Of a stretch of 64,000 nucleotides of DNA, positions 1,235 to 48,882 are shown piece after piece. The DNA is from an uncultured beta proteobacterium (GTDB taxonomy: Bacteria > Pseudomonadota > Gammaproteobacteria > Burkholderiales > Casimicrobiaceae). Made by a program: the position numbers and the translations under genes. A model generated the notes under the pieces. That model did not search any database, had not been told where the DNA came from, and worked only from the letters and a program-made list of their open reading frames with translations. The stretch covers positions 21,047 to 85,046 of the forward strand of contig CAVZYI010000003.1 of the NCBI GenBank assembly GCA_963779445.1. Reading direction: 5' to 3'. The stretch's first letter is position 1; every line of letters starts with the position of its first letter.

Positions 1235-1511
1235 GCCGCGCCGTCACGCGCAGTGCGCCCCGGCTTCCCCCGCTTTGGTGACGGGGATTATGCGGCATCG
1301 CCGCACGGCTTGGCAATGCTCGCCCGAGGCGTGCGCCCGCGTGCGGCCGTCGACGGCGGGTTCGGTCAGCGGGACCGGCGGTCCGCCGGGGCACGGCCGG
1401 CGCCGCGGCCTTTCGACGCGGCGCGACGCATGCCCAGGGGCCCCGTCCGGCAGCGAACCGATCGATTCGCTTCGTCGGCGCGACGACTTCGAACCGCGTC
1501 CGCAGGCGCAC

Positions 1512-3689: not shown

Positions 3690-3692
3690 GGG

Positions 3693-4061: not shown

Positions 4062-4113
4062 GCCTTGCTCCTGTGGCGCAGCGGCGCGGGTCTGCGCGCC
4101 GTACGCCGTTGCA

Positions 4114-6895
4114 TCATGCGCCCGGCGACGGGCCGTCCGGCGTCCGCTTAACCTCGTCGTGCCCCGGCAATGGCAGCACGAACACGAATGTCGCACCCTT
4201 GCCCGGCTCGCTCTCCACCCAGAGTCTGCCCCCCAGGTGCTCGACGATCTGGCGGCTGATCGCCAGCCCCAGCCCGGTGCCCTGGGGCTTCTCGGTCATC
4301 GTGTCGCCCGCCTGGCGGAATTTTTCGAAGATGACTTCGCGGTTCTCGACGCTGATGCCCGGCCCGTTGTCGGTCACGGCGACACGCAGGCCATCCGCGT
4401 CGCCGCGCAGCTCGACGACGACTCGACCCTCGCCGGGCGCGACGAATTTCACGGCGTTGGACAGCAGATTGATGAGCACCTGCATGAGACGGTCGCGATC
4501 CGCGCGCACCTGCGGAACGCCGTCGGGCAGGCGGGTCTCGAGGCCGACGCCGCGGTCGCGAAACAGCTGTCCCGTGGCCTCGATCGAATCCTCGATGGCC
4601 GCCTTGAGGTCGATCATCGAGACCTGCCACTCCGCGCGCCCCGATTCCAGCTTGGCGAGGTCGAGCACCTGGTTGATGAGCCGGGTGAGGCGCTCGCTTT
4701 CCTGGATGATGATGCCGAGGAAGCGGTGTCGTTCCGCGACGTCGAGCTCCGGGTTGTCGTGCAGGATCTCGGAAAAGGCCCGGATCGAGGTCAGCGGCGT
4801 GCGCAGCTCGTGCGTCACCGTCGACACGAAATCGTCCTTCAGGCGGTCGAGCTCCTTCAGCCGGTCGTTGGCGGCGCGCAGCTCGGCCGTGGCCGCCATC
4901 AGCTCGCGCGACTTGTGCTCCAGCTGGTGGCTGTAGGCGATGATCTGCGAGGCCTCGTCCAGCATGGTGCGGACTTCCCCGATGGTCAGTTCGTCCTCGT
5001 TGACGGTCGACGCGATCATGATCCGCGCGGAGGCGCCGCCGATCGCCCCGGCGAGCTCCGTCTCCGCGAACTGCACCGCGCCGGCGTCGGCCGGCATCTC
5101 GGCGGGAGACGCGAATCCGCGCCGGCGGGCGTAGTCGATCATGGCCGCTTCGGCGCGTTGCCGGCCAAGGAAGCGCGCAAGCAGCGCCTGCAGATCCGGC
5201 ATCGACGCCGTTCCCTTCCAAAGATGCACGTCGGAATCCTCGGCGCCGCGCCGGAAGACGTCGACGAAGCGCGCCGCCTGCGCCTGCTCGGCCACGCTCT
5301 GCCGGGTGAGCACCGAGACGACGACGTAGGCGCCGACATTGGCGATCATGCTCCACAGCATCGCATGCGTGATGTCGTTGAGGCCCTCGAGCCCGAACAG
5401 GGCGTAGGGCTTGAGCAGCGCGACGCCGAACGGCCCGTCCTTGAGGAACCCGATGGGCAGCCATCCCGACTTGGCGAACGACGGCAGCAGCAGCGTGTAG
5501 AGCCAGACGATGAACCCCGACGCGAGACCGGACAGCGCTCCGGTGCGGGTCGCGCCTTTCCAGTAGATTCCGCCGATGATCGCGGGGGCGAATTGCGCCA
5601 CGGCCGCGAACGAGATCAGGCCGATCGCCACCAGGGCGTAGGCTTCGCCGGCCAGGCGGAAATAGAGGTAGCCGAGCATCACGACCGCGACGATGGCCCC
5701 GCGGCGTATCCCGAGCAGCAGCCCCGTCAGGTTTCGCCGCTCCGCGAGCCGCATCGCCCTCACGCGCAGCAGCACCGGCATCACCAGGTCGTTGCACACC
5801 ATCGTCGACAGGGCGATGGTCTCGACGATCACCATCCCCGTGGCGGCGGACAGTCCGCCGATGAACACCAGCAACGCGAGGGCCTCCTGCCGCTCGGCCA
5901 TCGGCAGCGTCAGCACGAAGGTGTCGGGATCCACCGGCGTCGCGGAGAAGTGCATGACGCCGCCGAAGGCGACGGGAATCACGAACAGGTTCATCGCCAG
6001 CATGTACAGCGGGAACAGCCAGATCGCCTTGGCGAGGTGGTTCTCGTTGACGTTCTCGACGACCGCGACCTGGAACTGACGCGGAAGGAACACGATCGCC
6101 AGCATCGACAGCACCGTGAGCCAGGCCCAGCTCGCGTAGCTGCCCGCAGCCGCCCCCAGCGGGGCGAACAGCGGCGCCAGCTTCGGCGTGCGCGGCCGCG
6201 CGCTGGAAGATGTCGCCCAGCCCGTTGTAGATGCCGTAGGTGACGAAGCCGCCGACCGCGAGGAATGCGACCAGCTTCACCAGCGACTCGAACGCGATGG
6301 CCGCCACCAGGCCCTCGTGCCGCTCCGAGGCGTCGAGGTGGCGCGTGCCGAAGAGAATGGTGAAAGTGGCGAGCAGCAGCGCCATCCAGAACGCCGTGTC
6401 GGCCGGGATCGGAACCGTCTCCCGCGGCGCGGACAACACGACCTCGGGGTACTGGACCAGGATCGTGAAGCTGTGCGATACGGCCTTGAGCTGCAGCGCG
6501 ATGTAGGGGACGACGCCGATCACCGCGATGATCGTGACCAGTCCGGCAAGCAGCGCGCTCTTGCCGTATCGCGAGGAGATGAAATCGGCGAGGGAGGTGA
6601 TCCGGTTGGCCTTGCTGATGCGGATGATCTTGCGCAGCACCAGCCACCACAGCGCCATCATCATCGTCGGGCCGATGTAGATCGGCAGGAAGCCGACGCC
6701 ATCGGCAGCCGCGCGCCCGACGCTGCCGTAGAAAGTCCACGCGGTGGCGTAGACGCCGAGCGACAGCGAGTAGATATAGGGATTGGCGATGATCGAGCGG
6801 CCGCGATCCGCCCGATGGTCGCCGTAATAGGCGATGGCGAAGAGCACGCCCAGGTACGCCAGCGAAACCGGAATGACGACCCAGCTCTGGAGCAT
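4114..6895 (-). pseudogene. Solute:sodium symporter (SSS)-domain sensor histidine kinase (CbrA/CrbS-like architecture, no fused receiver); one frameshift near 6185 as assembled
   Basis: N-terminal SSS fold MLQSWVVIPVSLAYLGVLFAIAYYG...RITSLADFISSRYGKS (ORF 4148..6895) continues in the frame of ORF 4114..6114 (PKLAPLFAPLGAAAGSYASWAWLTVLSMLAIVFLPRQFQV...). C-terminus has H-box FVSTVTHELRTPLTSI and HATPase GTGLGLAISRQIVEHLGGRLWVES. Confidence 0.75.
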
Positions 6896-7257: not shown

Positions 7258-9165
7258 CTAGAGCCGGTACGACATCCGCAGGCGCTCCTGCAGCTGCTTC
7301 GCCTGCCGGAACGCCTCCTTCAGCATGCGCTGGTCGACCTCGTGCAGCGCGTACGGGTCGATCCGGTTCGCGGCACCCTGCGCGATGGCCGGATCCTGCT
7401 GGCGCAGGCGCAGGAACTGCAGGAAGTGGAACGCCTGCACCGTCGCGTCGACGTGCCGGGTGGCTACGTGCAGGCGCTCGCCGGCGATCCGCATCCTGGC
7501 GGCGGTTCCGGTCTCGGGGATGCCGAGAGCCAGCGCAAAGACACGGGCGCAGTCGACGAAGAGCCGCGTGCCGCGGGCCTTCAGGTCCAGCGTCCCCTTG
7601 ACCTTCGCCTCGTCGTCGACCGCGAACGTGCGGATGAGGCCCAGCGGCGGCTCGACCTCCAGCGCGTTCTGCACCATGAGCCTCAGGAATGCCGGATTCG
7701 CCTGCGTGTAGCCGAACAGCCAGTCGCGCAGCGCGTCGCAGAGGGTCGTGTCGCCATAGAGCGGACGGAAGTCGAAGACGATGTTGGCGCTGAGCAGCGC
7801 CTGCGGCGTCGGCGCCCGGATCCAGGCGAGAAACCTGGCCTTCCACTCGCCCGCGGACAGGCAGAGATCCGGGTTGCTCGCCATCACGTTGCCGGTGCAC
7901 AGCGGAAAGCCGAGCGTGTCGAGGCTGTCGTTCACCTCCCGCGCGAACGCGAGCAGCCGGACGCGCCGCCGCTCCGTCTCGGCCGCGTCGTCGGCGGCGG
8001 CGAAGAGCAGCGCGTTGTCCTGGTCGGTGGCGAAGGTCTGCTCGCCGCGCCCTTCGCTGCCCAGCGCGAGCCAGCACCAGTCGATGTCGTCGAGCTCGTG
8101 CCGCTCGAGCACGATCTCGATCGCCCGGCGCGACAGGCCGTCGTTGAGCGAGGCGATGGTGCGCGTCAGAGGCTCCGCGCCCACGCCCTGCGCCAGCAGG
8201 CTCTGCGTGAGCCGCCTGATGTCCTCGCCCGCCAACTTCAGCTGCCCGATCGTGTCGGACGCGTGCAGTTCCTCGATGACCTGGCGCATCGAAACGCGCT
8301 GCAGCGCGAAGAGATCGCGCTCGTTGATCACGCCGTGCAGCCGCCCGCCTTCGACGACGACGACCTGCCGGATTCCGCGCTCGGCCATCACATGCAGCGC
8401 TTCGGAGGCGGTGACCGACGCCGGCAGGGTGACGATCGGCGCCGACATCACCTCCGACAATGGCGTCGCCAGCGAACGCTCGGGCAGCACCACGCGGCGC
8501 AGCAGATCGACGAGCGTGAACATCCCGATCGGCGCGCCGTCGCTGTCGAGCACGACGATGGTGCGCACCTTCGCGTCGGCCATGCGCAGCAGGGCGTCGC
8601 GCAGCGGCACGGTCGCGGCGCAGGCGACCGGCGCCTGCCGGACGAGTTCGCCGAGCGTGCGCGTCAGCGTCTGCTGTTCCGCCGCTCTCTGGCTGTACTG
8701 GCTGCTGAGGCTCTCGAGCGATTGCCTCAGCTTCTCGGTGATCGCCTGCGTGCAGAAGCGCTCGAATTCCGGTGACGACTGCCGCAGTTCGAGAAAATCC
8801 TCGCGCGGCAGGACATGGCAGACGGTATCCTGCAGCGCGCGGAACGTCCGCGTCGTCACCCCGCCCGCCGAGAGGGCGCCGACGGGAAACATGTCGCCGG
8901 GGCCGAGCGTGCGCTCGGCGTCGATCTGGGCATTGGCGGAGTGGCTGCCGACGAGCCCGCGCTCGATGATGTGCAGGTGCTCGACAGGCCGCCCCTGCGC
9001 GGAGAGTATGGTCGCGTTCCTCGCGAAATGCGCGGGCTTGAGCCGGGCGGCCAGCGTGCGCAGCGCGCCCGCCTCCATCCGGTCGAATGGCGCGTAGCGG
9101 CGCAGCGTTTCGAGGACGGCTTCGCCCGCGGGCGGCACGGTTCCTTCGGCTGGACTCGGAGGCAT
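7258..9165 (-). CDS. cNMP-binding-like / tandem CBS / DUF294-type nucleotidyltransferase protein
   Basis: ILSAQGRPVEHLHIIERGLV (cNMP-like). CBS pair: VRTIVVLDSDGAPIGMFTLVDLL and IRQVVVVEGGRLHGVINERDLF. NTase core WCWLALGSEGRGEQTFATDQDNALLF. ATG 9165 chosen over the ORF start at 9564, whose extension is Arg-rich and overlaps actP. Confidence 0.8.
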   Translation of the reverse strand: MPPSPAEGTVPPAGEAVLETLRRYAPFDRMEAGALRTLAARLKPAHFARNATILSAQGRPVEHLHIIERGLVGSHSANAQIDAERTLGPGDMFPVGALSAGGVTTRTFRALQDTVCHVLPREDFLELRQSSPEFERFCTQAITEKLRQSLESLSSQYSQRAAEQQTLTRTLGELVRQAPVACAATVPLRDALLRMADAKVRTIVVLDSDGAPIGMFTLVDLLRRVVLPERSLATPLSEVMSAPIVTLPASVTASEALHVMAERGIRQVVVVEGGRLHGVINERDLFALQRVSMRQVIEELHASDTIGQLKLAGEDIRRLTQSLLAQGVGAEPLTRTIASLNDGLSRRAIEIVLERHELDDIDWCWLALGSEGRGEQTFATDQDNALLFAAADDAAETERRRVRLLAFAREVNDSLDTLGFPLCTGNVMASNPDLCLSAGEWKARFLAWIRAPTPQALLSANIVFDFRPLYGDTTLCDALRDWLFGYTQANPAFLRLMVQNALEVEPPLGLIRTFAVDDEAKVKGTLDLKARGTRLFVDCARVFALALGIPETGTAARMRIAGERLHVATRHVDATVQAFHFLQFLRLRQQDPAIAQGAANRIDPYALHEVDQRMLKEAFRQAKQLQERLRMSYRL

Positions 9166-9208
9166 GGTCACCGGCGGAGCGTAGTCACGGGCCGGGCGCC
9201 GCGCAAGC

Positions 9209-9232
9209 AAAAACCCCCGCGTGCGGCGGGGG
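9209..9232 (-). terminator. Rho-independent terminator downstream of actP
   Basis: Minus strand reads cccccgc-cgcac-gcggggg followed by ttttt (7-bp GC stem, 5-nt loop, T5), 28 nt after the actP stop. Confidence 0.6.
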
Positions 9233-9259
9233 CCCTTGCGTTGCGGCGACCGGAGAGCG

Positions 9260-11164
9260 TCAGTGCGCTGCGGCCTTCGATGCCAGGATGCCGGTGTTCT
9301 GGCGCACGTACAGTTCGTCCCACATGTCTTCCGCGCGCTTGTCCCGGTAGAGGAGCGAGCCGATGATGACCGCCAGGAATCCCAGCGGAATCGAGTACAG
9401 GCCCGGGTTGCGAAGTTCGAACCACGGCTTCTCGAGCCCGACGAGGCTCGTCTCGTCGTTCTTGAACTTGTCGAGATTGCCCTTGGCCGTCGCCACACCC
9501 TTGTCCATCGCCGCAATCGCGGTGCCGATCTTCGCCTTCGCGGCGTCGTCGGCCGCGGCCGCAAGATCGGCGTCCAGTTTCGGACGCGCCACCGCCGCAG
9601 CGTCGACCACCTTCTGCGCGCCCGCCTTGATCACCTTCGGGTAGGTCATGTTCGGCGAAACCAGAACCAGCCCGATCGCGGTGAGCGTGCCGACGATCAT
9701 GCCCAGCACGATGCCGCCGGTGTTGCAGCGCTTCCAGAAGAGCGTGAGCAGCACGCAGGGGAAGTTCGCGGAGGACGCGACGGCGAACGCCAGCGCCACC
9801 AGGTGCGCGACGTTCTGGCCCTTGGCCGAAATGCCGATGGCGATGGCCATGGCGCCGACGACGATCGTGGCGATGCGCGCTGCCCGGACCTGCTCCTGAG
9901 GCGTCACGTGGCCCTCGCGGATCACGCCGACGTAGATGTCGTGCGCCATCGCCGAGGCCGCCGCGAGCACGAGGCCGGCGACCACCGCGACGATGGTGGC
10001 GAAGGCCACCGCGGCGACGAAGGCGAGGAACAGGTTGCCGAGCATCGAGTCGGGTCCGCCGCCGACGTACTGCGCGAGCAGCGGGCCGGCCATGTTGCCG
10101 CCCGGGTCGACCGCCCTGATGTTGACCGCGCCGACGTTCATCGCCGCGCCCATGCCGAGGAACAGCGTCAGGACGTAGAAGCCGCCGATGATCGCCATCG
10201 CCCAGATCACCGAAACGCGCGCGGCCTGGGCCGTGGGCACGGTGAAGAAGCGCATCAGGATGTGCGGCATGCCGGCGGTGCCGAACACCAGCGCCATGCC
10301 CAGCGAAATCTGGTCGATGGGCGCCTTGAAGAGGAGCCCCGGTTCGAGGAAGCGCTGTCCCAGCTCGGCCGCGGTCATGTTCTTGCCGGCGTCGCCCAGC
10401 AGCGAAGCGACCTGCGCCTGCACCTTGGCGTCGCCGATGACCGCCGTCAGGAATGCCGGGAGGCTGAACCCGTAGGGCGTCCAGACGAACATGACCAGCA
10501 GGATCGATGCGGTGACCAGCAGGATGGCCTTGATGATCTGCACCCAGGTCGTCGCCACCATCCCGCCGAACAGCACGTACGAGAGCATCAGCACGCCGAC
10601 GACCATCACCGAGATCTCGTAGTCGATGCCGATCAGCGTCTTCACGAGCACGCCGCCGCCGACCATCTGCGCGGTCAGGTAGAACGTCGACACCGTGATC
10701 GTCGAGATCGCGCCGACGATGCGCACCTTCTTCGGGTCGTTGCGGTAGGCGAGGATGTCCGAAAGCGTGTACTTGCCGATGTTCCGGCAGGGCTCGGCGA
10801 TCACCAGCAGCACGGTGATGTAGGCGACGAGCCAGCCCACCGAATACATGAACCCGTCGTAGCCGTAGAGCGAGATCAGGCCGGCGATGCCGAGGAAGGA
10901 CGCCGCCGACAGGTAGTCGCCGGCGATGGCCCAGCCATTCTGCAGCCCGGAAACACCGCCCCCCGCGGCGTAGAAGTCGGCGGCGGTCTTGACCCGCTTG
11001 GCCGCGCGGTAGGTGACGTACATCGTCACGCTGATGATGGCGCCGAAGACGAGGAAGGTGAGCCAGCGCCACTTGTCGGCGACGGCGCCCTGCGCGAGCG
11101 CCGGCGTGGCGATGGCGAGCAGCGACAGGAAACCTGCGAAGCATGCCAGGCGGCGGGTGTTCAT
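9260..11164 (-). CDS. actP: Cation/acetate symporter ActP (SSS family), long form with an extra C-terminal loop
   Basis: 634 aa. GWAIAGDYLSAASFLGIAGLISLYGYDGFMYSVGW and FGTAGMPHILMRFFTVP. Start overlaps the stop of the DUF485 gene by 4 nt, the classic yjcH-actP arrangement. Confidence 0.9.
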   Translation of the reverse strand: MNTRRLACFAGFLSLLAIATPALAQGAVADKWRWLTFLVFGAIISVTMYVTYRAAKRVKTAADFYAAGGGVSGLQNGWAIAGDYLSAASFLGIAGLISLYGYDGFMYSVGWLVAYITVLLVIAEPCRNIGKYTLSDILAYRNDPKKVRIVGAISTITVSTFYLTAQMVGGGVLVKTLIGIDYEISVMVVGVLMLSYVLFGGMVATTWVQIIKAILLVTASILLVMFVWTPYGFSLPAFLTAVIGDAKVQAQVASLLGDAGKNMTAAELGQRFLEPGLLFKAPIDQISLGMALVFGTAGMPHILMRFFTVPTAQAARVSVIWAMAIIGGFYVLTLFLGMGAAMNVGAVNIRAVDPGGNMAGPLLAQYVGGGPDSMLGNLFLAFVAAVAFATIVAVVAGLVLAAASAMAHDIYVGVIREGHVTPQEQVRAARIATIVVGAMAIAIGISAKGQNVAHLVALAFAVASSANFPCVLLTLFWKRCNTGGIVLGMIVGTLTAIGLVLVSPNMTYPKVIKAGAQKVVDAAAVARPKLDADLAAAADDAAKAKIGTAIAAMDKGVATAKGNLDKFKNDETSLVGLEKPWFELRNPGLYSIPLGFLAVIIGSLLYRDKRAEDMWDELYVRQNTGILASKAAAH

Positions 11165-35761: not shown

Positions 35762-38578
35762 TCATTCGGCCTTTCGCGCGGGCCATGAATCGAAGTTTCT
35801 CCGCGCCGACGCCAGCACCTCCGGCAATCGCGTCGCCACGCGCCGCTTCAGTTCGTCGAGCCCGATCAGCGCGCGTGCGCACAGCTGCTCCAGCTGCCGA
35901 CAATCGAGGTTGCGGGAATCGACGACCCAATCCGGCAATCCGAAGAGCTGCCAGAGTCCTTCGAACTTGCCCTGGTACGAAATTCCGATGGTCGGCGTTC
36001 CCATGCCCAGCGCCGCGATGGCGAGGTGCATGCGGCCGGTGACCACCAGATCCGCCATTCCCGCCAGGCGCTTCGCCTCGGCCGGGCTGGCGGGCACGAC
36101 GTGGTGATGGAGTCCGCTGCCGACCGATCCCCCGGACATGAGACTCCGCAGTTTCATGACGATGGCGACGTCGCCGTCGTCGCCGCTCGCGCCGGGCCGC
36201 AGGTCGTGGGCGCACCACAGAACGCCGAGCCGGTGATCGGCGACCAGCCTCGCCGCCAGGTCGGCGAATTCGCCGTACCCGCCGCCGCGCGCGGCCGGCG
36301 CTCCGGAGAGCACATGCCGCGACAGGTTGATCATCAGTATGCGCCGGCCCGACGCTTTCTGCGCCCGGATCCAGGCCTCGGCGTCTCGGGTGACGAACGA
36401 GGACTCGGCCGGCGGCATGAGAAAGGCGACATCGGCCACCGGAGTCACCGATGCCAGGCCGCGGTCCGCCAGGCGCCGGACCGAGACCGGATCGCGCACG
36501 CAAAGCGGAATCCGCCCCGCGAGGCGGGCAAGATCGGCGATGGCCTCGTCGCGCGGGACTTCGTTGACGCTGAAGCCGAAAACGGCGGTCGCCAGGCCCC
36601 GCCGTGCGGCGATGTCCACCAGCGCCAGACGATGGCGCGTTTCGTCCAGCGAATAGTAGCCGTCCAGCACGTCGGCGCCGAAAAGAGCGAACGCGTCGTA
36701 CCGATGGAGGACCCCCTCCACTTTCGCCAGCGCATCCGACCCCGACACGGCGTCGCCGGGGTTCACCGCGATGACGCGGCGCACGCCGGGCAGCTGCGGC
36801 CAGCCCGCCCCGCCGTAGATCGAAATCAGGTCGACCGCCCATTCGGCAGCTGCGGCATCCCGCCAGGCAAGAAGTCCCCGGACCATGGCCTCGTCACCCA
36901 GGCTGCCGTAGCCGGCCGGCACCAGCACCAGCGCGGCGGGCCGGACGCCCGCGTCGCGCGCGGCATCGGCGCGGGCCTCCTTCCGCGCGATGGACCGATC
37001 CCTCAGCTCCACCAGCACGCTGCGCGCGGCCTCGGGCGAGAAGTGGCGACGAAGGGTCTCCATCGCATCGTCGGAAATCGCCGTCCACAGCCCGGCGTCG
37101 CCATAGATGCGCACGATGGCGTCGGCGAAGTCCTGCGCGGTGTCGGCGATCAGCGCATTGCGCCCGGACTCGAGGTGCATGCCTTCGGCCGCACGCGTCG
37201 TCGCAATGACCGGAACGCCGGAACCCTGCGCAGTGCCGATCTTGCCCTTCACGCCCGCGCCGTAGCGCAGCGGTGCCACCGATGCCCGGCAGCCGTCGAG
37301 ATACGGCGTCAGGTCCGGGGCGTGCCCGACGGCAACGATTCCGTCGCCGGCGAGAGCCCGCACCGAGTCGGGCATGTTGCTGCCGATCAGATACGTCACC
37401 ACGCCGGGCAGCTCGCGCCGCACCTTCGGCCACACCTCGGCCGCGTACCAGCACACCGCGTCGACATTGGGCGCATGCGCGAAACCGCCGACGAAGAACA
37501 GGTCGCGGCGAGCGGCGAAACCCGCCTGCCGGCCGCGCACCTCGTGGATGTTCGACAGGTTCCGGACCCGCGCGCCCGGAACCTCGCCGGCCAGGAGGCG
37601 GCTTTCGAATTCGCTGACCACCAGCGTGCAATCGGCAGCCCGGATGACGCCCAGTTCCTGCGCCTGCGTCATCGCCGCATGGCGCGTGGACTCGGGGTCA
37701 CCGGTGATTTCAGCCATCCGCCTCTCGCGCAGGAAATGCAGGTCGACGGTATCGACGACGAACGTGGCATCGGGCGCGTAGTGGCGCAGCAGCGTGATGT
37801 ACGGCTGCGCGAGGTTGAACCGGCTGATGAAGATCAGATCGAACTCGCCCCCGCGCGTGGCAAGAATCTGCGTGAGCCCGCCCCAGACCTACGGCGGGCG
37901 CAGGACTTCAATGCCTTCGTCCTCCATCCAGCCGTCGCGCGACGCGGCGTAGTCCATGTCCAGGGCGTGGAAGGCCACGCTGCAGCCGATATTCCGCAGC
38001 AGTCGCAGGATCGACACCAGGCGAACCGACGCCGAATCCCGGTCGCGCTGCGGCGCGCAACCGTCGACGTAGAGCACTCTCGCCCCCTCGCGAACGCTCG
38101 GTGCTGCGATCGCGCCGGCGACCCCGGCTTCGGCGTGGCTGCGATCGCCGGCGCTCGCGGCGACGGTCGGCCCGGGCGAGCCGGCGAACGCGGCGGTCCG
38201 CTCGTCCCACGTCGCCGCGTCCCAGGTGGCGGAGTCGTCGACCATGCGGGATACGACCAGCGACAGGTTGTGCTTCATCGCATCGACGGACCAGCCGGTG
38301 ATCTGCAGCGCCTGCCAGATGAGCCGGGCGGCTTCGACGTATCGGCCGGTCTGGTAGCAGATCACTCCCAGCATGTGCAGGCAGTCGGGTTCGTCGCGCG
38401 ACGTTGCCAGCGCCTTGCGATAGATTGCTTCGGCCGCCGGGAGGTTGCCCGCCTGCTGCTGCTGCAGCGCCCCGTGCATGGCGCCGCGGAGGTCGCCGTC
38501 GCCGGCGTCGCCGCGTCCGCAGCAATGCTTGTAGCGCCTGCCGCTTCCGCAGGGGCAAGGACTCATCCGCGAAGTCAC
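35762..38578 (-). pseudogene. SEC-C motif / TPR / glycosyltransferase / polysaccharide pyruvyl transferase multidomain protein, interrupted by one in-frame TAG (37889-37891)
   Basis: ORFs 37889..38578 (MSPCPCGSGRRYKHCCG, TPR, RVLYVDGCAPQRDRDSASVRLVS) and 35762..37717 are in the same frame. The 57 codons between them are open and read VWGGLTQILATRGGEFDLIFISRF...VDTVDLHFLRE. C-terminal half is pyruvyl-transferase-like (LVVTGRMHLAIAALGMGTPTIGISY). Confidence 0.65.
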
Positions 38579-41398: not shown

Positions 41399-41893
41399 TT
41401 ACGCCGCGGTTGTCGGAGCTGCCGGGTCGGCCGCAGGCGGCGCTTCGGCGACAGCCGGTGCCGGCCGCGGTCCGCGGTCGCCACGGTCGCCGCGATCACC
41501 GCGGTCGCCGCGATCGCCACGGTCACCGCGATCGCCACGGTCACCGCGATCGCCGTCGCGGGCAGGCCTGGGCTTTTCTTCCCGCATCATCGGCGACGGC
41601 GCCACGACGGCTTCCTTCATCGCGACGATCAGGTGGCGCAGCACCGCGTCGTTGAACTTGAACGCGTGTTCGAGCTCGTCGAGCGTCTCCTGGTCGACCT
41701 CGATGTTCATCAGCACGTAGTGTGCCTTGTGGATCTTGGCGATCGGGTAGGCGAGCTGGCGCCGGCCCCAGTCTTCGAGGCGGTGGATCCGGCCATTCTT
41801 GCCGGTGATGGTCGTGCGATAGCGCTCGACCATCGCGGGCACCTGCTCGCTCTGGTCGGGATGCACGATGAAAACGACTTCGTAATGACGCAT
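41399..41893 (-). CDS. rpsF: 30S ribosomal protein S6 with an Arg/Asp/Gly repeat C-terminal extension
   Basis: [25 protein letters not shown]...[18 protein letters not shown]; tail RDG(DRG)x9 then a Pro/Ala-rich end. Confidence 0.9.
41471..41560 (-). repeat. In-frame tandem repeat (9-nt / 18-nt periodicity) encoding (DRG)n in the S6 tail
   Basis: Forward ...cgcgatcgccacggtcaccgcgatcgccacggtcaccgcgatcgcc...; about 10 triplet-peptide units. Confidence 0.8.
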
Positions 41894-42009: not shown

Positions 42010-42111
42010 GGTGAAGCCGCCGGTGCCTCGCGGCCGGGTCGTCGTTTCCGGCCTGCGACGGCGCCTCGCTCTCCCGCATTCCTGAAGCGCGCCGGCGCCG
42101 GTCGCGACCGG

Positions 42112-44004
42112 TCAGCGCCGGTCGAGCCGATAGATCCGCGACTCGCCATAGGCCTTGGCCAGCTCCAGGCGGCCGATGTATTCCAGCGCGAATTCGTCCT
42201 TGCCGGTGGCGACCAGCGTCGCGGCGAAGGCTTCGCTCGCGTACACCATGCCGGTCGGCGTCACCGGCTCGATACGCGCCGCCTTGGTGACGCTCGATCC
42301 GAAATAGCTCTCGCGGCCCATGATCGGGTCGAATCCGCAGAACACCGGGCCGGCGTGCAGCGCGATGCGGATCTGGCTGCTGTCCGGCAGCCCGGCCGCC
42401 GTCCAGTCGATGCCGAGCATGTTCGCCAGAAGGCGCAACGCGAACTCGGCGCCGTCGCGGGGCGACGCGAACACGGCGTACAGCGCATCGCCCCAGGTCT
42501 TGGCTTCCAGCGGCTTGATCGGAGAGGCCGCGATTTCCGCGGCGACGACATCGAGGAAACGTGACTGGAACAGCGGCGCATAGGCATCGTGCAGCCGGCT
42601 GTAGCCCGCAAAGTCGGCGAACAGCAGCGTCTTCAGCGTCCGTTGCGGGAGCGTGGCAGCGCCCATTCCGTCGGACACGACGACCGCAGCGGGCCCACCC
42701 GCTGCCCCGGGCATCGGGCCGCGACCGGGCGCGCCATCCGCGACGGCCCTGGTGCCGGAACCGGCCTCTGCCCGAAGCAGGCTCAGGTCGATCACCTGCG
42801 GCGGGCCGACGTTCGCCTGCCAGCGCTCGAACGACGACAGCGTGCCGCCCACCCCGCCTCGCGCCGCCGAATCGAGCACGCAGAGCAGCGACGGAGCGGT
42901 CTGCAGCTGCGCGGCGCGCAGCACGGCAAAGCCTTCGAGCAGCAGCGCCGCGTGTTCGAAGAGCACGTCGTCATCGAGGTAACCCTCTTCGGTGGCCATG
43001 ATCACCCGCGTCGCCCGGGCGAGAGCCGCGTCGAAGCGCGGCAGCCACGCGGCGCCGCCGACGGCCACGCTGCTGCGCACGAAGTCCTCACGGTCGAAGG
43101 GCAGCACCACGTTGACCTCGGCGCCGACGGCAAGCGCCGCCTCGATGAACATCAGGTCGGAGCCGCAGGCGGCCGACGTATAGACGACGGGCTCGTGGAG
43201 GCGCGCGAGATGCCGGCGGAATGCATCCTCGACGGCGCTCGCCAGCGCCGCCGGAAACCGGGGCACGGGCCGCCCTGGGGCGTCGATCATGTGGCCGGCG
43301 AACGCCAGCACGTCGGCGGCAGGCAGGACCCGCATCGCGCCGGCGGCTTCGGGTATGACCCGTGCGAGCAACCCGACCTGCCGGCGCATCGTCGCCACGC
43401 TGCCGGCGTCGCCCGGAGCGAGCGCGAACGCGGCGGCGTAGCTCTGCCGCGCCCGATCGAACGCTCCGAGCAGCAATTCGGCCTCGCCTGCCGTCGCGTG
43501 GTCCCAGCACGTCGGCGGCGTCGCCTGCGCGGCAAGCTGCGCGAGGATTTCCTGCGCGAGCCGTCGCGCCTCCGCACGGTCGCCGAGCAGCAGCGACAGG
43601 GTGGCGGCATTGATGCCGGGGTACGTGTCGTGCCGCAGCGCGTAAGCCGCGAGATATTCGTCGCGCGCGCGCTCGGCCATCGCCGCCGCGCCGGGGGAAT
43701 CCGGCGCGCGATGGAAGCCGTCCTTCCACAGGCGTCCGCGCAGGCTCAGGATGTCGGCGAGCAGCGCTGCCGGCGCGCCAGCCTGCGCCCGGTCGAGCAG
43801 CGCGTGCGCCTCGTGGGTTGCGCCTGCCCTCGCGTGGGCCAGCGCGCCGCAATAGAGGAGCTCGGGTTCGAGCGGCCGCGACGCGACCGCGTCGCGGAAC
43901 GCGTCGCAGGCGTCCCAAGGCGCGCCGTGCGCGAGATGGCTGCGGATGCGCGCGCAGGCGTCGGCAGCGGCGGGGGGGGCCCCGTCGGAAAGGATCTGCT
44001 GCAT
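42112..44004 (-). CDS. DUF4071/TRAF-binding-like TPR region + SLOG/DprA-like Rossmann region + class III nucleotidyl (adenylate/guanylate-type) cyclase
   Basis: 630 aa. LSLRGRLWKDGF...YALRHDTYPGINAATLSLLLG; VLAFAGHMIDAPG...VVYTSAACGSDLMFIEAALAVGAEVNVVLPF; cyclase LLFADFAGYSRL, TWGDALYAVF, IRIALHAGPVFCG, YFGSSVTKAARIE. Confidence 0.7.
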   Translation of the reverse strand: MQQILSDGAPPAAADACARIRSHLAHGAPWDACDAFRDAVASRPLEPELLYCGALAHARAGATHEAHALLDRAQAGAPAALLADILSLRGRLWKDGFHRAPDSPGAAAMAERARDEYLAAYALRHDTYPGINAATLSLLLGDRAEARRLAQEILAQLAAQATPPTCWDHATAGEAELLLGAFDRARQSYAAAFALAPGDAGSVATMRRQVGLLARVIPEAAGAMRVLPAADVLAFAGHMIDAPGRPVPRFPAALASAVEDAFRRHLARLHEPVVYTSAACGSDLMFIEAALAVGAEVNVVLPFDREDFVRSSVAVGGAAWLPRFDAALARATRVIMATEEGYLDDDVLFEHAALLLEGFAVLRAAQLQTAPSLLCVLDSAARGGVGGTLSSFERWQANVGPPQVIDLSLLRAEAGSGTRAVADGAPGRGPMPGAAGGPAAVVVSDGMGAATLPQRTLKTLLFADFAGYSRLHDAYAPLFQSRFLDVVAAEIAASPIKPLEAKTWGDALYAVFASPRDGAEFALRLLANMLGIDWTAAGLPDSSQIRIALHAGPVFCGFDPIMGRESYFGSSVTKAARIEPVTPTGMVYASEAFAATLVATGKDEFALEYIGRLELAKAYGESRIYRLDRR

Positions 44005-44123
44005 GCGGGGTGTCGGGCCGATCGTCGCGGACGCCTAGCGCTGCCGCTTCAATCCTTCGGCGATGCGCTCACGCCACACCTGTGCGGTCCCCGGCGCGCG
44101 CATTTCGTTCGGCGGCTCGACGC

Positions 44124-47100
44124 TCAGCGCGTTGCGCGCCGTGCGTCGGCAATCAGCGCCTGCGCAGTCAGGCTCCTGCGCGCGCCACGCGCTTCGGCAG
44201 GCAAGCTGTCGAGCGCGGCCTGGGCTTCGGCGAGCAGGGCGCCGGCTTTCGACGGCGTCGATTGCGCCGAGGCCAGCAGCGCGAGCGCCAGGCTGAGCTT
44301 GTGCCACTGCTCGTCGGTCTTTCGCGCACTGAATTCGCGCTGGAACGCGAGCGCGGGTCCGGCCAGCGCGCGTGCTTCGTCGTTGCGTCCGACGCGAGCC
44401 AGCGCGATCGCGAGCAGCACCGCATCGTCGGCCGCTTCGCGCCGTCCGCCGAGGGTGCGCGCGGGCAGCTGCTTGCGCGCTTCGGCGAGACGGCCGAATT
44501 GCTCCTGCGCGGCGGCGAAGTCCCCGTCCTGCAGTTCGGCCCAGCCCAGCGCCAGGTGCAGATTGCGAAGTCCGTCCGCAACGCGCTCGCGGCCGAAGGC
44601 ATCGGGAGGCTTCAGTTGCAGCAGCTTCTCCCGCACTCCCTTGGCGGCGGCACGGGCGCGCGCCGGGTCGCCCAGGCGTGCGGCCAGCTGCACCGGGCCG
44701 ACAGCCGTCCCTGCGCGAAAGATGGCATGCTCGAAAGAGGTCTCGGGGATGCCGCGCATGAAGGTGTCGAAATAGCGCAGCGAGTCGGCGAGGTATCTCT
44801 CTGCCGCCGCAGGCTGTCCGAGGTCGGCGGCGAGCATCGAGGCCCAGTAGAGCGACTCGGAGACCGGGCCCGCGATCAGGGGCGAGGTCGCGGCAAGGGC
44901 CTCTCCCTCACGGTTCTCCAGGAACCTGGCCAGTGCGTCGCGCAGGCGCCCCATATCCCACAAGGCACCCGCCGCGTTCGAGCGCGAGATGAGCGAGTTG
45001 CCTCTCGCGATCATGTTGCTGGGGTCGATCCTCGCCAGCAGCGCCGAGTCCCGCATCGACTGTTCGGCAGCGGCCAGGCGGCGTGCCGGCTGCACTTCGC
45101 TTTCCGCCACCTGGGCCAGCGCCGATGAAATCAATCCACGTGCGCGCAAGGCGAGCATGTTGGTCGGCTGCTGATCGAGCACCAGCGAGGTCGCTCGAAG
45201 TCCTTCTTCACCTGTACGGACGGCGTCTTCCGGCCGGCCCAGATTGCCGTAGGTCTCGACCAGCCAGCCGGCCGCGATGCCGAAACGGGCCGCGGCATCG
45301 CTGTCGGCCCGCAGGTTGTCGATGCTGCGGTAGGCTGCCAGCGCCGCGTTCTGTGAGACCAGCGCGGTTTCGTACTGGCCCTGGCGGGTTTGCACGTATC
45401 CGAGCTGATCCAGAGCCGCCGCATAGGCGCGCCGCAGGGCGACGCTCGCGTCGCTCGCCTTCGCCGCCGGCAGAAGCACCGTCACGGCCCGTTCCGCGGG
45501 GGGCAGCGCGGCGCGGTCGAAGCCGCCCGAGTCCACCGCGCGCGACTGCGCGACCAGACCGAGAGACAGGCCGATCGCGGCGGCCTCGCTCGCATCGCCC
45601 TTCGCGCGCAGTGCATCGAGCGCAGGAATCGCCACCGCGAACACCTCGCGCGCTTCGTCGACCTTGCCCTGGGTGCGCAGCACCGCGCCGTAGCGCACCT
45701 GTGCCAGCGCCTGGTTGCGCTCGGTGTCGGGCGTGCGCAATTCGGCCGGCAGGGCGTTGTAGTAGTCGATCGCGCGCTTGGCAAGCTCGCCGACGATGTT
45801 GAGACGGCCGACGGGTTCGAGTTCGCGGTAGAAGTCGTCGAGCAGGTAGACGACGAGCTTTTCGGATTCTCCGCGCGCGGTTTCGGCGATCGCCCGCGTG
45901 GCCTGCGCGCGCTGCATGTTCCAGACACCGAACACGGCCGCGCCGACGGCGACGACGGCCAGCGCGACGCAACCGGCCGCGATCTTGCGCGCGCGGATCA
46001 GCGCCTTGCGTGTGGCGATTTCGCGATCGCGCTGCTCGGCGAGCCTGCGCTCGGCCTCGTCGCGCGCTTCCCGCTCGTGGCGCAGGTCGCGGCTCGCCGT
46101 CACGACGCTGCACAGCACGTCGTGCGTCAGCTCCACGCGGCGCAGGTCGAGCCGCTCCTCGATGCGCAGGAGCCGCCGGTTGACCAGCTTCGACAGCGCG
46201 TCCGGCGGGGCCCCTGCCGCGGCGAACGCCTTCCGCACCCGCTCCTCGGCCAGGCTCTCCCTGAAGCCGGACTCGGTGATCATCTCGTCCTCGACGAACT
46301 TGCGCACGCCAGGCGGCTGGTCGGCGAGCGCGCGCTCGTAGAACTCGGAGAGGATCGTGTCGCGCGAGCCGGCGAGCAGGTCGGCGGAGATCTCGCTCCT
46401 GCCCTGCGCGATGCGGGCGTTGTTCAACTCGCGGCAGATGAGCGAGAGCAGCGAGGGCTCGACCTCGGCGTTGCGCAGTTCCGAGCCGCCGGCGATGAAG
46501 CGCACGATCGATTCGGCGATCTCCTCGTTGACGAGCGCCCCGCCGGGCTTCACCACGGCGTCGAGCGCCTGCGCGCCGGTCATCCGCGCGAGCCGCATCC
46601 GGTTCTGCGTGATCGAGGGCATCCCGCCCTTCACACCCTCGAGGTGCGCGAGGTAGTCCTCGCGCAGCGCGATCAGGATCCGATAGTCCTCGCGAGTGAA
46701 GTCGAAGCGCTCGGCGGCCGAGTCGTCGTTGTCGATGCGCTCCTCGACGGCCTTCGGCGCCCGGTTCTCCACCAGGTCGGCGAGGTCGGCGATGAACTCC
46801 GCCGCCCGCCGGCGGCCGAACTCGTCGGTCTGGGCGAGCGTGAAGATCTCCTCGAACTGGTCGAAGATGAGCAGCGGGATCAGCGTCTTTCCGTCGGCGT
46901 CGCGCAGCACGTCGTCGCGGTGGTGCAGGAACTCCCACAGCGACTCGCCCTCGACCGCAGCGCCGGCCTGCGTCCATTGCCCCGAGGCCTGCGTTGCCCG
47001 GAAGATCGCCTTCTTGATCTGCTCGGCCGGTGGCGGCGACTCGGGGGCGTAGTCGATGCGCACGTAGACGGGACAGTAGCCCAGCGGGCGCAGCCGCGGG

Positions 47101-47330
47101 ACGATGCCGGCGCGCAGGATCGACGTCTTGCCGAGCCCCGACTGGCCGAACAGGATCGTCAGCAGCTTGCGCTGGACACGACGGCCGAGCTCCGCCACCT
47201 CCTCCTCGCGCCCGTAGAAGTACGCGCGCGTCTCCTCGGTGAACGAGTCGAGGCCGAGCCAGGGGTGCTGCCGGTCGATGGCGGATTGCGAGTCCGCCGG
47301 GATCGCCGGGGCCGTTGCGATTTCGTTCAT
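44124..47330 (-). CDS. STAND-class P-loop NTPase (nSTAND-like) with one predicted TM helix and about 600 aa of C-terminal TPR-like repeats
   Basis: 1068 aa. HPWLGLDSFTEETRAYFYGREEEVAEL, Walker A GQSGLGKTS (47121-47147), Walker B LLIFDQFEE, EPSLLSLICRELN, VELTHDVL, TM IAAGCVALAVVAVGAAVFGVW (45921-45983), then Ala/Leu-rich helical repeats. Confidence 0.7.
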   Translation of the reverse strand: MNEIATAPAIPADSQSAIDRQHPWLGLDSFTEETRAYFYGREEEVAELGRRVQRKLLTILFGQSGLGKTSILRAGIVPRLRPLGYCPVYVRIDYAPESPPPAEQIKKAIFRATQASGQWTQAGAAVEGESLWEFLHHRDDVLRDADGKTLIPLLIFDQFEEIFTLAQTDEFGRRRAAEFIADLADLVENRAPKAVEERIDNDDSAAERFDFTREDYRILIALREDYLAHLEGVKGGMPSITQNRMRLARMTGAQALDAVVKPGGALVNEEIAESIVRFIAGGSELRNAEVEPSLLSLICRELNNARIAQGRSEISADLLAGSRDTILSEFYERALADQPPGVRKFVEDEMITESGFRESLAEERVRKAFAAAGAPPDALSKLVNRRLLRIEERLDLRRVELTHDVLCSVVTASRDLRHEREARDEAERRLAEQRDREIATRKALIRARKIAAGCVALAVVAVGAAVFGVWNMQRAQATRAIAETARGESEKLVVYLLDDFYRELEPVGRLNIVGELAKRAIDYYNALPAELRTPDTERNQALAQVRYGAVLRTQGKVDEAREVFAVAIPALDALRAKGDASEAAAIGLSLGLVAQSRAVDSGGFDRAALPPAERAVTVLLPAAKASDASVALRRAYAAALDQLGYVQTRQGQYETALVSQNAALAAYRSIDNLRADSDAAARFGIAAGWLVETYGNLGRPEDAVRTGEEGLRATSLVLDQQPTNMLALRARGLISSALAQVAESEVQPARRLAAAEQSMRDSALLARIDPSNMIARGNSLISRSNAAGALWDMGRLRDALARFLENREGEALAATSPLIAGPVSESLYWASMLAADLGQPAAAERYLADSLRYFDTFMRGIPETSFEHAIFRAGTAVGPVQLAARLGDPARARAAAKGVREKLLQLKPPDAFGRERVADGLRNLHLALGWAELQDGDFAAAQEQFGRLAEARKQLPARTLGGRREAADDAVLLAIALARVGRNDEARALAGPALAFQREFSARKTDEQWHKLSLALALLASAQSTPSKAGALLAEAQAALDSLPAEARGARRSLTAQALIADARRATR

Positions 47331-47364
47331 GCGGCGGTCGGGTCTGGCACGGGAGGTGCGGCCG

Positions 47365-48753
47365 TCAGGCCGTTCGCGCCGAGAGGAGATCCTGCAGCCG
47401 GCGCACGAACTCGGGCGTGACCTCGCCGGCGGCGAGCCGCGTGAAATGCACCGCCTTGAAGTGCTCGGGCACGCGCGCGTCGCCGGCGTTCGTGTCGTCG
47501 ATGCACACCGGCAGGACGAACACCGCCCCGTCGGCCATGTTGCGGGTGCGGTCGATCGCGTAGCTCCACTCGCGGCGGAAGTAGCCTTCGAGCCGCCTCT
47601 CCGTCGCCGCCGAGACGACCGGAATGAAGAACGAGCAGCGGGCGATGTTGCGGTGGATCATCCGGTCGAAGTCGTCGCCGCCTTCGAGGCGCTCCATGTC
47701 GAACCAGGCCCTGATCCCGGCGGCGTCGAGCCCGGCCTTGAGCTTCTGCACGGCGGCGAGGTCGTCGCGCGCATAGCTGACGAACACGGCCTGGTCCGGC
47801 ATCTCGCGTTCCGGCGGCATGAAACGCAACGGCGCCGCGCCGATGGCGATGACGTCCGCCGGTCTGTGCCGCGCCGTCCAGCGCCGATGCAGCTCGTCGA
47901 CGAACTTGCCGGCGCCGCCGTAGATGCGCGTGCGCACGCTGACCTGCTGCAGGAAGCTCATCAGGCGGCTGTCGCTGCCGGAGTGGCTGTCGGCGAGGAC
48001 CTCGCCCACCTCGCGCGGGTCGGACAGCCGGTGGCGCTTGGTCATCCGCAGAAAGAATCGCGCGAGCCAGTTGGTGAAGCTGCTGCCGATCAGCAGCAGG
48101 TGATTGTGCTCGAGCTCGTGGAACAGCTTCTCCGGCGTCAGGTGCTCGCTCTGCAATGCGCAGATGAACTCCAGCGTATCCTCGTCCGAGATCACGTACG
48201 TCGGCGACGCCGACAGGCGGCCCATCAGGTGATAGACGACCGGGCGCTGGAGCCGCTCGCGCTCGGTCGGCAGGTCGGCGACGCGGTTCGGCGAATACGC
48301 GATCACCTCGGTGGACTGCGCGCCACCGAACCGCTCGCCGTTGATCGCCTGCTCGAGCAGCGGGTCGAAGGTCGTCGTGACGTACAGGTCGAAATCGGTG
48401 ATCTGGGCGAGCTGCCGCAGCGCGTGGGGAGGCGCGAAGTTCGCGTCGCGCAGGATGCTGCGCAGCCGCGTGTAGGCCTCCTCGCGGCGCCCGCGCGAAG
48501 CGAGAAACCAGCAGACGACGTCGTTCAGCGTGTACGGCTGCGGAAGCAGTGCCGTGTCGACGTTGAGCTTGCCGGCCAGCTTTTCCGCGAGCCATTCGTA
48601 CAGCAGCCGCGGGCCGGATTCGGTCTCGACCTTGAGCAGCTCCGGCCCGATGATCGGGATGACGCGGCGTTCCTCGATGAAGTTGAGGAGGTCCTCCCAC
48701 GCGTCATCGTCGAGCGTGGCGAGCGGCGGATGGATGGAAAGCAGGCTGGTCAT
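47365..48753 (-). CDS. SIR2-like (SIR2_2-type) domain fused to a C-terminal TIR domain
   Basis: ATG 48753 (ORF track starts 2 codons earlier at TTG). RVIPIIGPELL, LYVTTTFDPLLEQA, VVYHLMGRL, HLLLIGSSFTNW. TIR: AVFVSYARDDLAAVQKLKAGLDAAGIRAWFDMERLEGGDDF, CSFFIPVVS, GYFRREWSYA. Confidence 0.7.
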   Translation of the reverse strand: MTSLLSIHPPLATLDDDAWEDLLNFIEERRVIPIIGPELLKVETESGPRLLYEWLAEKLAGKLNVDTALLPQPYTLNDVVCWFLASRGRREEAYTRLRSILRDANFAPPHALRQLAQITDFDLYVTTTFDPLLEQAINGERFGGAQSTEVIAYSPNRVADLPTERERLQRPVVYHLMGRLSASPTYVISDEDTLEFICALQSEHLTPEKLFHELEHNHLLLIGSSFTNWLARFFLRMTKRHRLSDPREVGEVLADSHSGSDSRLMSFLQQVSVRTRIYGGAGKFVDELHRRWTARHRPADVIAIGAAPLRFMPPEREMPDQAVFVSYARDDLAAVQKLKAGLDAAGIRAWFDMERLEGGDDFDRMIHRNIARCSFFIPVVSAATERRLEGYFRREWSYAIDRTRNMADGAVFVLPVCIDDTNAGDARVPEHFKAVHFTRLAAGEVTPEFVRRLQDLLSARTA

Positions 48754-48882
48754 GCGCAATGTCCGCTACAAGCGAACTGTCTTTCCGGTTGCACGGCACC
48801 CCTCATTGCGCTCGGCCGGCTGCGATCCCGCCCGCGCGAGTCGCAGTGTCCACGATTCCCAAACGACGGTCAAACCTCGCGA

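Follow-up and report, generated by a model that had tools for sequence, protein, structure and literature searches.

The window analysed here, a 64,000-nucleotide (nt) stretch of DNA from an uncultured betaproteobacterium of the Casimicrobiaceae (a family of soil bacteria), carries on its minus strand an operon of three genes. These encode (i) a protein with a SIR2-like and a TIR domain, (ii) an nSTAND1 NTPase with one transmembrane (TM) helix and a TPR array, and (iii) a protein composed of TPR-S, a SLOG-type fold and a class III nucleotide cyclase, called 'TSC' below. The three genes are strictly co-inherited and their functional linkage is strongly supported. We rate the locus as an unnamed system of the Thoeris-like TIR signalling kind, with a cyclase as its output and a membrane STAND protein as its receptor, in which known parts are newly arranged, and we consider the chances evenly balanced that it works as a three-protein relay coupling two second-messenger systems. 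If true, this would be the first TIR-made NAD-derived messenger to act directly on a second-messenger synthase and not on a toxic effector, and it would connect the Thoeris-type and the Pycsar/cyclic AMP-type arms, the two principal branches of nucleotide signalling in bacterial immunity.

The initial annotation of this DNA had described three intact, co-directional minus-strand genes with spacers of 34 and 119 nt, and the open reading frames (ORFs) have exactly the coordinates that it gave; the motifs that it quoted are likewise all present in the three proteins.

47365..48753, minus strand: gene 1, SIR2-like and TIR protein, 462 amino acids (aa), ATG at 48753 (ORF; Pfam SIR2_2 and TIR_2)
47331..47364, minus strand: spacer between gene 1 and gene 2, 34 nt
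44124..47330, minus strand: gene 2, nSTAND1 NTPase with one TM helix and a TPR array, 1068 aa (ORF; Pfam)
44005..44123, minus strand: spacer between gene 2 and gene 3, 119 nt
42112..44004, minus strand: gene 3, TPR-S, SLOG-fold and class III nucleotide cyclase protein (TSC), 630 aa (ORF; Pfam; AlphaFold)

Most long ORFs in the window are spurious because of its GC content of ~70%, and a clean gene map was obtained by filtering ORFs on GC content at third codon positions (GC3). Genes 1-3 have a GC3 of 0.87-0.93, as real genes do in a genome of ~70% GC. Searches with PADLOC and NCBIfam bear out the view that no named system matches the triad; NCBIfam names none of the three proteins, and an exact look-up of the gene 3 protein sequence returned no record.

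Co-inheritance of the triad and the recurrent TIR-TSC pair

When an alignment of gene 3 was used to scan genomes, each species being represented by one, 79 loci were obtained, almost all of them from Casimicrobiaceae, other Burkholderiales and unclassified betaproteobacterial metagenome-assembled genomes (MAGs). Among the 48 dereplicated loci with full flanks in which gene 3 is at least 55% identical (the close set), an nSTAND1 partner lies 5′ of gene 3 in every case (48/48), and the full triad, in the order gene 1-2-3, is found in 44; the other four are variants. Using tblastn, the same order is recovered, bar these four, in every locus that has a gene 3 at least 55% identical and no less than 5 kb of sequence upstream. 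The triad, proposed initially from a single copy, is therefore a recurrent unit outside this genome (44/48 close loci), and loci seeded with gene 1 homologues contain it in 3/3 cases, among metabolic genes. At least 12 unrelated flanking contexts, mostly metabolic, are represented.

Sequence conservation is uneven across the cassette. Gene 1 is 75-95% identical across orthologues (mean identity to the window copy 81%), and the ratio of nonsynonymous to synonymous substitution rates (dN/dS) is lowest in gene 1 and the gene 2 NTPase (0.12-0.16), intermediate in gene 3 (0.27-0.38) and highest in the gene 2 C-terminus (0.44); only this ranking is meaningful, since the GC3 bias makes dS unreliable. 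Purifying selection acts on each of the three genes (dN/dS 0.12-0.44). Two minor observations concern individual copies. In one locus (L013) the gene 1 homologue is 93% identical to that of the window and the best gene 2 segment 89%, as against only 68% for gene 3; the cassette may have recombined here, or its gene 3 may have been replaced. In several long-read MAGs (L001, L008, L013, L020, L166 and L167) the gene 2 and gene 3 homologues are split into several ORFs and were recovered by tblastn in pieces, probably because of indel errors in the assemblies and not because the genes have become pseudogenes.

Beyond the close relatives, a search with aa 1-450 of gene 3 against 1.84 billion representatives returned 4077 clusters (50% identity), among which 687 have E < 1e-30, by which the TPR-S-SLOG-cyclase architecture is not rare; it is present in 112 of the top 149 relatives. 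A metagenome scan added 80 more loci. Where gene 3 is less than 55% identical and the flanks are complete, a TIR protein is encoded within three ORFs in 11 of 15 loci. Specifically, the partners are TIR-TM-TPR proteins (L079, L133, L136, L153), TIR-TM-WD40 proteins (L083, L123) or small proteins with a C-terminal TIR (L085, L152, L158), and the triad itself appears again in L124 and L144. TIR-TSC pairs thus occur without any STAND or SIR2 protein; the TIR and TSC proteins are therefore the constant pair, to which particular lineages have added the STAND ATPase and the SIR2-like domain. In loci with a ~40% identical gene 3, the TIR-TM-TPR protein has a C-terminal module homologous to that of gene 2, and because the TIR is fused there to the same TM-TPR module, domain-fusion logic implies that genes 1 and 2 act together.

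In the four variant loci (L011, L032, L046 and L072) a single protein replaces genes 1 and 2, with an N-terminal DUF4062 match (E 0.004, below the curated cut-off) followed by nSTAND1, a TM helix and TPRs. The same four loci encode, always between the nSTAND1 and TSC genes, a secreted protein of 265-312 aa of the PEP-CTERM-sorting type (for example L032 9079-9927). Directly 5′ of the variant system in L032 lies a gene (10-5460, plus strand) for an 1816-aa protein with a DUF7379 (alpha/beta hydrolase) domain, a CHAT protease and TPR-S, so that this locus would have two outputs that bear TPR-S. Small conserved genes also stand between the TIR-TM-repeat and TSC genes in several lineages, encoding a putative lipoprotein of 169-181 aa, a protein of 220-238 aa without a Pfam match, or an Abhydrolase_2-like protein of 215 aa (L076 9401-9946; L079 9392-9901; L141 6607-7269; L149 4094-4810; L083 5662-6309); these may be extra components.

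In further relatives of gene 3, a RyR domain or a Ser/Thr kinase is added at the N-terminus, or a response-regulator receiver domain at the C-terminus (P0290, P0299, P0365, P0284 in L082, P0261 in L084, and P0326), and in P0261 the Ser/Thr kinase is fused to TPR-S in an ASK-like layout. Eukaryotic ryanodine receptors are tied to signalling by cyclic ADP-ribose (cADPR), which makes the RyR fusions intriguing. Together, the RyR, kinase and receiver fusions bear on the proposed bacterial origin of the sensor region of the ASK signalosome.

A scan of viral contigs found no relatives, and a scan of plasmids found distant ones only. Among the latter is a TPR-S-SLOG-cyclase gene of a cultured strain, on plasmid pSBC2-4 of Caballeronia sp. 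SBC2 (L169, NZ_CP049320.1 24054-41037), at a distance of ~3.4 kb from a gene of the DUF4231 (SLATT-like) type, after which come TIR and WD40 genes. This DUF4231-TIR-WD40 configuration resembles type VII Thoeris (TIR and SLATT, using cADPR), and a cultured relative on a Caballeronia sp. SBC1/SBC2 plasmid makes the relay idea directly testable.

Domain evidence and the proposed relay

In the proposed relay, the gene 2 product would be a single-pass membrane protein with a cytoplasmic nSTAND1 module and a periplasm-facing, fast-evolving TPR array that takes the primary cue. NTP-dependent oligomerisation of the STAND module would recruit and activate the gene 1 product, whose TIR domain (through Glu395) would cleave NAD+ to an ADP-ribose-derived messenger, probably of the cADPR type. 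The TPR-S and/or the SLOG fold of gene 3 would bind this messenger and switch on the class III cyclase, and the resulting cyclic mononucleotide (cNMP) would be read elsewhere, for example by a Crp-family regulator or another cNMP-binding protein such as those adjacent in relatives.

For gene 2, the STAND-type NTPase called initially is confirmed by Pfam, and the following features can be placed on the protein:

46029..47264, minus strand: nSTAND1 NTPase module, aa 23-434 (Pfam E 1.1e-32)
47121-47147, minus strand: Walker A, GQSGLGKTS, intact
46848-46874, minus strand: Walker B, LLIFDQFEE, intact
45927..45983, minus strand: single predicted TM helix, aa 450-468, with an Arg/Lys-rich N-flank (hydropathy scan)
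44127..45923, minus strand: C-terminal helical/TPR array, aa 470-1068, ~600 aa (weak TPR Pfam matches)

The hydropathy scan detects one hydrophobic segment at aa ~450-468 in 39 of 39 intact gene 2 orthologues (counted once in 27 of them and as two overlapping windows of the same helix in 12), and in nearly all TIR partners of the distant TSC proteins a single TM helix, never more, separates the TIR domain from its repeats, be they TPR or WD40. The N-flank of the helix is Arg-rich both in gene 2 orthologues and in the TIR partners (e.g. RRDAQRRNRRMAR), which, by the positive-inside rule, would leave the TIR or NTPase part in the cytoplasm and the repeats outside. Given its position after a single TM helix with such a flank, the gene 2 TPR array probably faces outward and not into the cytoplasm. 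Single-pass TIR and STAND partners of this kind raise the possibility of bacterial TIR signalling that is driven from outside the cytoplasm. The putative sensor region is also the most divergent part of the protein: identity to orthologues is 77-94% in the NTPase and only 21-46% past aa ~560, and dN is ~4x higher at the C-terminus, with a dN/dS of 0.44 vs 0.16 for the NTPase. Positive selection on the sensor region is not supported, its dN/dS of 0.44 being the highest in the operon but below 1.

Both domains of gene 1 named by the initial annotation, SIR2_2 and TIR_2, are recovered by Pfam (E 1.2e-12 and 4.6e-18):

47854..48696, minus strand: SIR2-like domain, aa ~20-300 (motifs IIGPEL, TTTFD, YHLMG)
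48013-48387, minus strand: Pfam SIR2_2 match, aa 123-247, E 1.2e-12
47440..47787, minus strand: TIR domain, aa 323-438 (Pfam TIR_2 E 4.6e-18; matches to TIR structures in PDB)
47569-47571, minus strand: E395, putative catalytic Glu of the TIR domain

In an alignment with 26 partner TIR domains, E395 (in FRREW) falls on the conserved Glu of S-x-W-V-x-x-E, so that the Glu of RREW singled out at the outset occupies the catalytic-Glu position of all partner TIRs. A pairwise alignment with PdTIR had pointed to I400 and was overruled by this larger alignment. The SIR2-like domain is a different matter: its motifs IIGPEL, TTTFD and YHLMG are invariant in 30 orthologues, save for M, L or F at the HLxG position, and they depart from what we take to be the canonical SIR2_2 motifs (GAGxS, TTNYD and KLHG), in that GPE stands in place of GAG and TTTFD in place of TTNYD, and the His is displaced. 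A sequence search of PDB with this domain found no match to a solved SIR2 structure. The domain would then be inactive or derived, and a role in regulation, NAD binding or assembly is likelier for it than one as the NADase. NAD+ depletion by SIR2, as suggested originally, is therefore doubtful, the motifs being non-canonical and yet fixed among the 30 orthologues. With PADLOC, gene 1 gives generic TIR-domain matches only, those to ThsB models being weak (E 0.003).

These properties bear on an Avs-like abortive infection, in which the STAND protein would sense an invader and the SIR2-TIR protein deplete NAD+, with TSC as a secondary branch that senses ADP-ribose by-products and amplifies, reports or limits the response. 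STAND with TIR or SIR2 is the classic sensor-effector layout of antiviral STAND systems, gene 1 contains two NAD-related domains, and the gene 2 sensor region evolves fastest in the operon, all of which would fit. Against this stand the non-canonical SIR2 motifs, the position of the putative sensor beyond a TM helix, and the lack of any PADLOC match of gene 2 to Avs, DSR or other STAND-defence models. Moreover, because TIR-TSC pairs exist without STAND or SIR2, TSC is the constant partner of the TIR and not an accessory of the STAND protein. We regard the Avs-like scheme as improbable and return to the relay, for which gene 3 would supply the receiver and the output:

43327..43968, minus strand: TPR-S helical array, aa 13-226 (Pfam and AlphaFold model)
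43594-43911, minus strand: Pfam TPR-S match, aa 32-137, E 2.2e-13
42757..43323, minus strand: SLOG-superfamily (DprA/LOG-like) Rossmannoid domain, aa 228-416 (fold match only)
42115..42642, minus strand: class III cyclase domain, aa 455-630 (Pfam; PDB profile alignments; Foldseek)

The N-terminal region had been described as DUF4071-like; its proper Pfam name is TPR-S, and a match to MAP3K_TRAF_bd (formerly DUF4071) falls just below the cut-off. With a binding role already predicted for TPR-S, the parts are therefore less unknown than was implied. The full-length protein was modelled with AlphaFold (pLDDT 80.6, pTM 0.82), and Foldseek on this model returned cyclase and TPR matches only. For aa ~228-416, neither a 33-sequence profile against PDB nor each member against Pfam gave a credible match, which leaves the earlier 'SLOG-like' call without a counterpart at the sequence level. 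Modelled alone, this middle domain reaches a pLDDT of 94, and its top Foldseek matches are ShosA and several DprA proteins (E 3.8e-7 to 3e-4, probability 1.00); since these are structural and not sequence matches, the SLOG call is supported at the fold level only. Motifs of the domain are invariant or nearly so (GHMxDxPxRxxPRFP, SAACGxD, ExN/HxxLPF and GGT). Indeed, in 117 diverse sequences G237, G281, D283 and P302 are invariant (117/117), and H238, D241, R249, F250, P251, A279, C280, E296, G386 and G387 are ~80-99% conserved, a pattern that points to a ligand or catalytic pocket.

The class III cyclase call is supported by Pfam (Guanylate_cyc at aa 459-625, E 2.5e-8). In the broad family the metal-binding Asp residues are kept in 107/112 (D464) and 106/109 (D506) sequences and the transition-state Arg in 103/107 (R577). 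The position of the transition-state Asn is occupied by T573 here; among 107 broad-family sequences it is Asn in 56, Thr in 21 and Ser in 15. The purine-specifying pair is K502/S566 here and Asn/Asn in the broad family, neither the ATP nor the GTP pair, and because these specificity residues are non-canonical the base of the product is not predictable.

On the output side, Crp-family regulators are encoded beside TSC genes in several loci (L118, L120/L143, L139, L012, L019 and L097), and other neighbours include a 622-aa cNMP-binding protein together with a SulP-STAS-cNMP transporter (L158) and an MMPL-cNMP protein (L163). Within the window, a candidate cNMP receptor is a 790-aa protein with a cNMP_binding domain, two CBS domains and a DUF294 nucleotidyltransferase (7261-9630, minus strand). 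In genes 1 and 2 themselves no Pfam match to cNMP_binding was found at E <= 0.1.

As for the direction of signalling, the TIR is placed upstream because TIR partners carry variable sensors while TSC is constant, and because TPR-S is also found on a CHAT protease (L032), as would be expected of a domain that is a shared signal receiver. Of the two orders entertained by the initial annotation, the one in which a TIR product is read by the third protein and switches the cyclase is thus the better supported. The reversed, Pycsar-like order would have TSC sense the cue and make a cNMP that causes the SIR2-TIR protein, possibly via STAND, to deplete NAD+. Pycsar does join PF00211 cyclases to TIR or TM effectors, and TIR systems with PF00211 are classed as Pycsar by Yirmiya et al. 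2025 (10.64898/2025.12.03.692087); the non-canonical specificity of the cyclase (Asn/Asn in the broad family) also leaves room for an unusual nucleotide. But genes 1 and 2 lack a cNMP-binding domain, the defining trait of Pycsar effectors, and where cNMP-binding proteins do occur nearby they are transporters or regulators of the Crp type and contain no TIR. Furthermore, the large sensor arrays of the TIR partners (WD40, TPR, STAND) fit an upstream role, and TPR-S and SLOG are receivers for NAD-derived ligands, so that the reversed order seems very improbable.

The relay itself, from membrane STAND protein to cNMP, has to be held against several facts that count against it. Avs and other STAND systems normally employ TIR and SIR2 domains as terminal effectors and not as signal generators, and no adaptor domain shared between gene 1 and gene 2 was found. 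The assignment of a ligand to TPR-S consists of a prediction and one indirect experimental link, and the Foldseek TM-scores behind the SLOG call are low (0.38-0.43). The transition-state Asn is replaced by Thr in most Casimicrobiaceae orthologues, because of which the cyclase activity could be low or absent. Finally, no cNMP-binding gene lies within the operon of the window, the nearest candidate being 33 kb away, and the enrichment of cNMP_binding neighbours is modest, at ~3-fold (a rough estimate, without statistics).

Known systems and biological role

The closest comparison is with Thoeris, where a TIR protein is likewise paired with a partner bearing a receiver domain for the TIR product, and the pairing recurs across lineages. 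Type VIII Thoeris (ThsB and ThsI) uses canonical cADPR, the perception of which by the effector is credited to a TPR domain predicted by Aravind's group, and in type I Thoeris 3'cADPR binds the SLOG domain of ThsA (Yirmiya et al. 2025, bioRxiv 10.64898/2025.12.03.692087, the latter point in its introduction). Gene 3 has both kinds of ligand-sensing module, TPR-S (E 2.2e-13) as in type VIII ThsI and a SLOG-superfamily fold as in type I ThsA. It differs in its output, which is a class III nucleotide cyclase and not a growth-arresting or killing effector; PADLOC gave nothing meaningful for genes 2 and 3, and the ThsA models did not match. In addition, the TIR is here fused to a SIR2-like domain, a STAND ATPase in the membrane serves as a sensor of its own, nearly all partner TIRs are single-pass membrane proteins where those of Thoeris are described as soluble, and the neighbours inspected here show no defence island. 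In that work, the latest systematic survey of TIR signalling, multigene TIR systems with PF00211 were treated as Pycsar and discarded (Yirmiya et al. 2025, 10.64898/2025.12.03.692087). As all PF00211-containing candidates were dropped by design, the TIR-TSC class was probably overlooked.

With Pycsar the locus shares a PF00211 cyclase (Guanylate_cyc E 2.5e-8, metal-binding Asp residues and Arg kept) that adjoins the gene of a TIR protein, and purine-specifying residues that are non-canonical. It differs in that an effector with a cNMP-binding domain is not present (no match of genes 1 or 2 at E <= 0.1), that the cyclase carries an N-terminal TPR-S and SLOG receiver, that there are three genes including a STAND NTPase, and that the direction of signalling is probably the opposite. 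With Avs/bNACHT and the nSTAND1 conflict systems it shares an nSTAND1 module that has both Walker motifs and precedes an array of repeats, and the profile match (E 1.1e-32) with both Walker motifs places gene 2 in the nSTAND1 clade. Avs proteins are single polypeptides, with an effector at the N-terminus and a cytoplasmic sensor at the C-terminus, whereas gene 2 begins with nSTAND1 and its effector candidate is encoded in trans; here, too, a TM helix divides the NTPase from the TPR array, and no STAND-defence model of PADLOC matches. In PMC8195603 nSTAND1 is described as the central NTPase of counter-invader systems with TIR effectors, and Kaur et al. 2020 and 2021 count both nSTAND1 and cNMP cyclases among the components of conflict systems. 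Within the 2020 text as searched, the terms 'SIR2' and 'TPR-S' are absent and the passages with 'cyclase' or 'SLOG' describe no such triad.

Gene 3 also resembles TPR-S systems and the N-terminal region of ASK, in having TPR-S and a sub-threshold MAP3K_TRAF_bd match beside TIR and SIR2 proteins; it is encoded next to an enzyme of the NAD+-processing type (TIR or SIR2). Burroughs and Aravind reportedly defined TPR-S in 2020 and predicted that it binds NAD+-derived signals. Their work may already depict the TPR-S-SLOG-cyclase architecture, in which case the locus would be a member of a computationally predicted class.

An analogy, and only that, can be drawn with animal Toll-like receptors: in their predicted topology the TIR-TM-TPR/WD40 partners have repeats outside, one TM helix and a cytoplasmic TIR, while in this window the TIR is supplied in trans. 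The ectodomains are not homologous, and the bacterial TIR is presumed to be enzymatic. On this analogy one might envisage, tentatively and as the less probable case, a pathway of Toll-like-receptor topology in which an outside cue leads through an NAD-derived messenger, TSC and cNMP to Crp-type transcription, and which need not involve abortive infection. If true, the Toll-like layout would amount to a widespread bacterial receptor pathway with a two-tier second-messenger cascade.

Whether such wiring serves conflict or ordinary signalling is a separate matter, on which the evidence is mixed. The initial annotation had presented the operon as an immune system, and this remains an assumption, as there are no defence-island neighbours, no phage copies, and purifying selection acts on all three genes. 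A defence-island context was looked for and not found: the inspected neighbours of the window operon and of the three gene 1-seeded loci are metabolic or housekeeping genes, as judged by inspection and without a formal defence score. Among the flanks that were annotated, a part of all flanks, no integrase or transposase was seen that would favour a mobile-element explanation.

It is accordingly quite possible, though somewhat short of an even chance, that the wiring is the same but its role is not anti-phage, the operon being a lineage-wide cascade for envelope or environmental reception that ends in Crp-type transcription. The triad is present in dozens of species-level genomes of Casimicrobiaceae and related Burkholderiales, with gene 1 75-95% identical and dN/dS of 0.12-0.44 throughout; the neighbours are metabolic or housekeeping genes, copies are absent from phage contigs and plasmids hold distant relatives only, the predicted place of the sensor is beyond the membrane, and relatives are fused to kinase, receiver and RyR domains or stand adjacent to Crp regulators. 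A conflict role, on the other hand, is favoured by the occurrence of the cassette in at least 12 genomic contexts, the fast divergence of the sensor region, the CHAT-protease/TPR-S protein added in a variant locus, which is typical of conflict systems, and the Caballeronia plasmid relative near TIR, WD40 and DUF4231 genes; bacterial TIR signalling has, moreover, so far been tied to immunity.

Flanking genes and candidate regulatory signals

Upstream of the operon lie genes for a PF10023 aminopeptidase, an aminotransferase, a pirin and uronate metabolism, of which the aminopeptidase gene is the nearest, across a gap of 129 nt; downstream is the cluster rpsF-priB-rpsR-rplI-dnaB. Two candidate regulatory segments border the triad:

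48754..48882, minus strand: intergenic region 5′ of gene 1, 129 nt, presumed promoter region
42013..42029, minus strand: terminator-like hairpin and T-run, ~85 nt past the stop codon of gene 3 (weak consensus match)

A promoter scan of the 129-nt intergenic region found no sigma-70 consensus, and terminator-like matches are no commoner than in shuffled sequence.

Three observations on the downstream genes may be added. The rpsF gene (ribosomal protein S6, 41399-41893, minus strand) encodes a (GDR)x9 tail followed by a Pro/Ala-rich tail, and the (GDR)x9 part is coded by an 18-nt tandem repeat (41464-41555, 4.6 copies, 90% matches). Past dnaB there are genes for a small protein with a SEC-C motif and TPRs (37889-38578, minus strand) and for a fused glycosyltransferase/polysaccharide pyruvyl-transferase (35762-37717, minus strand), both of which appear unrelated to the operon.

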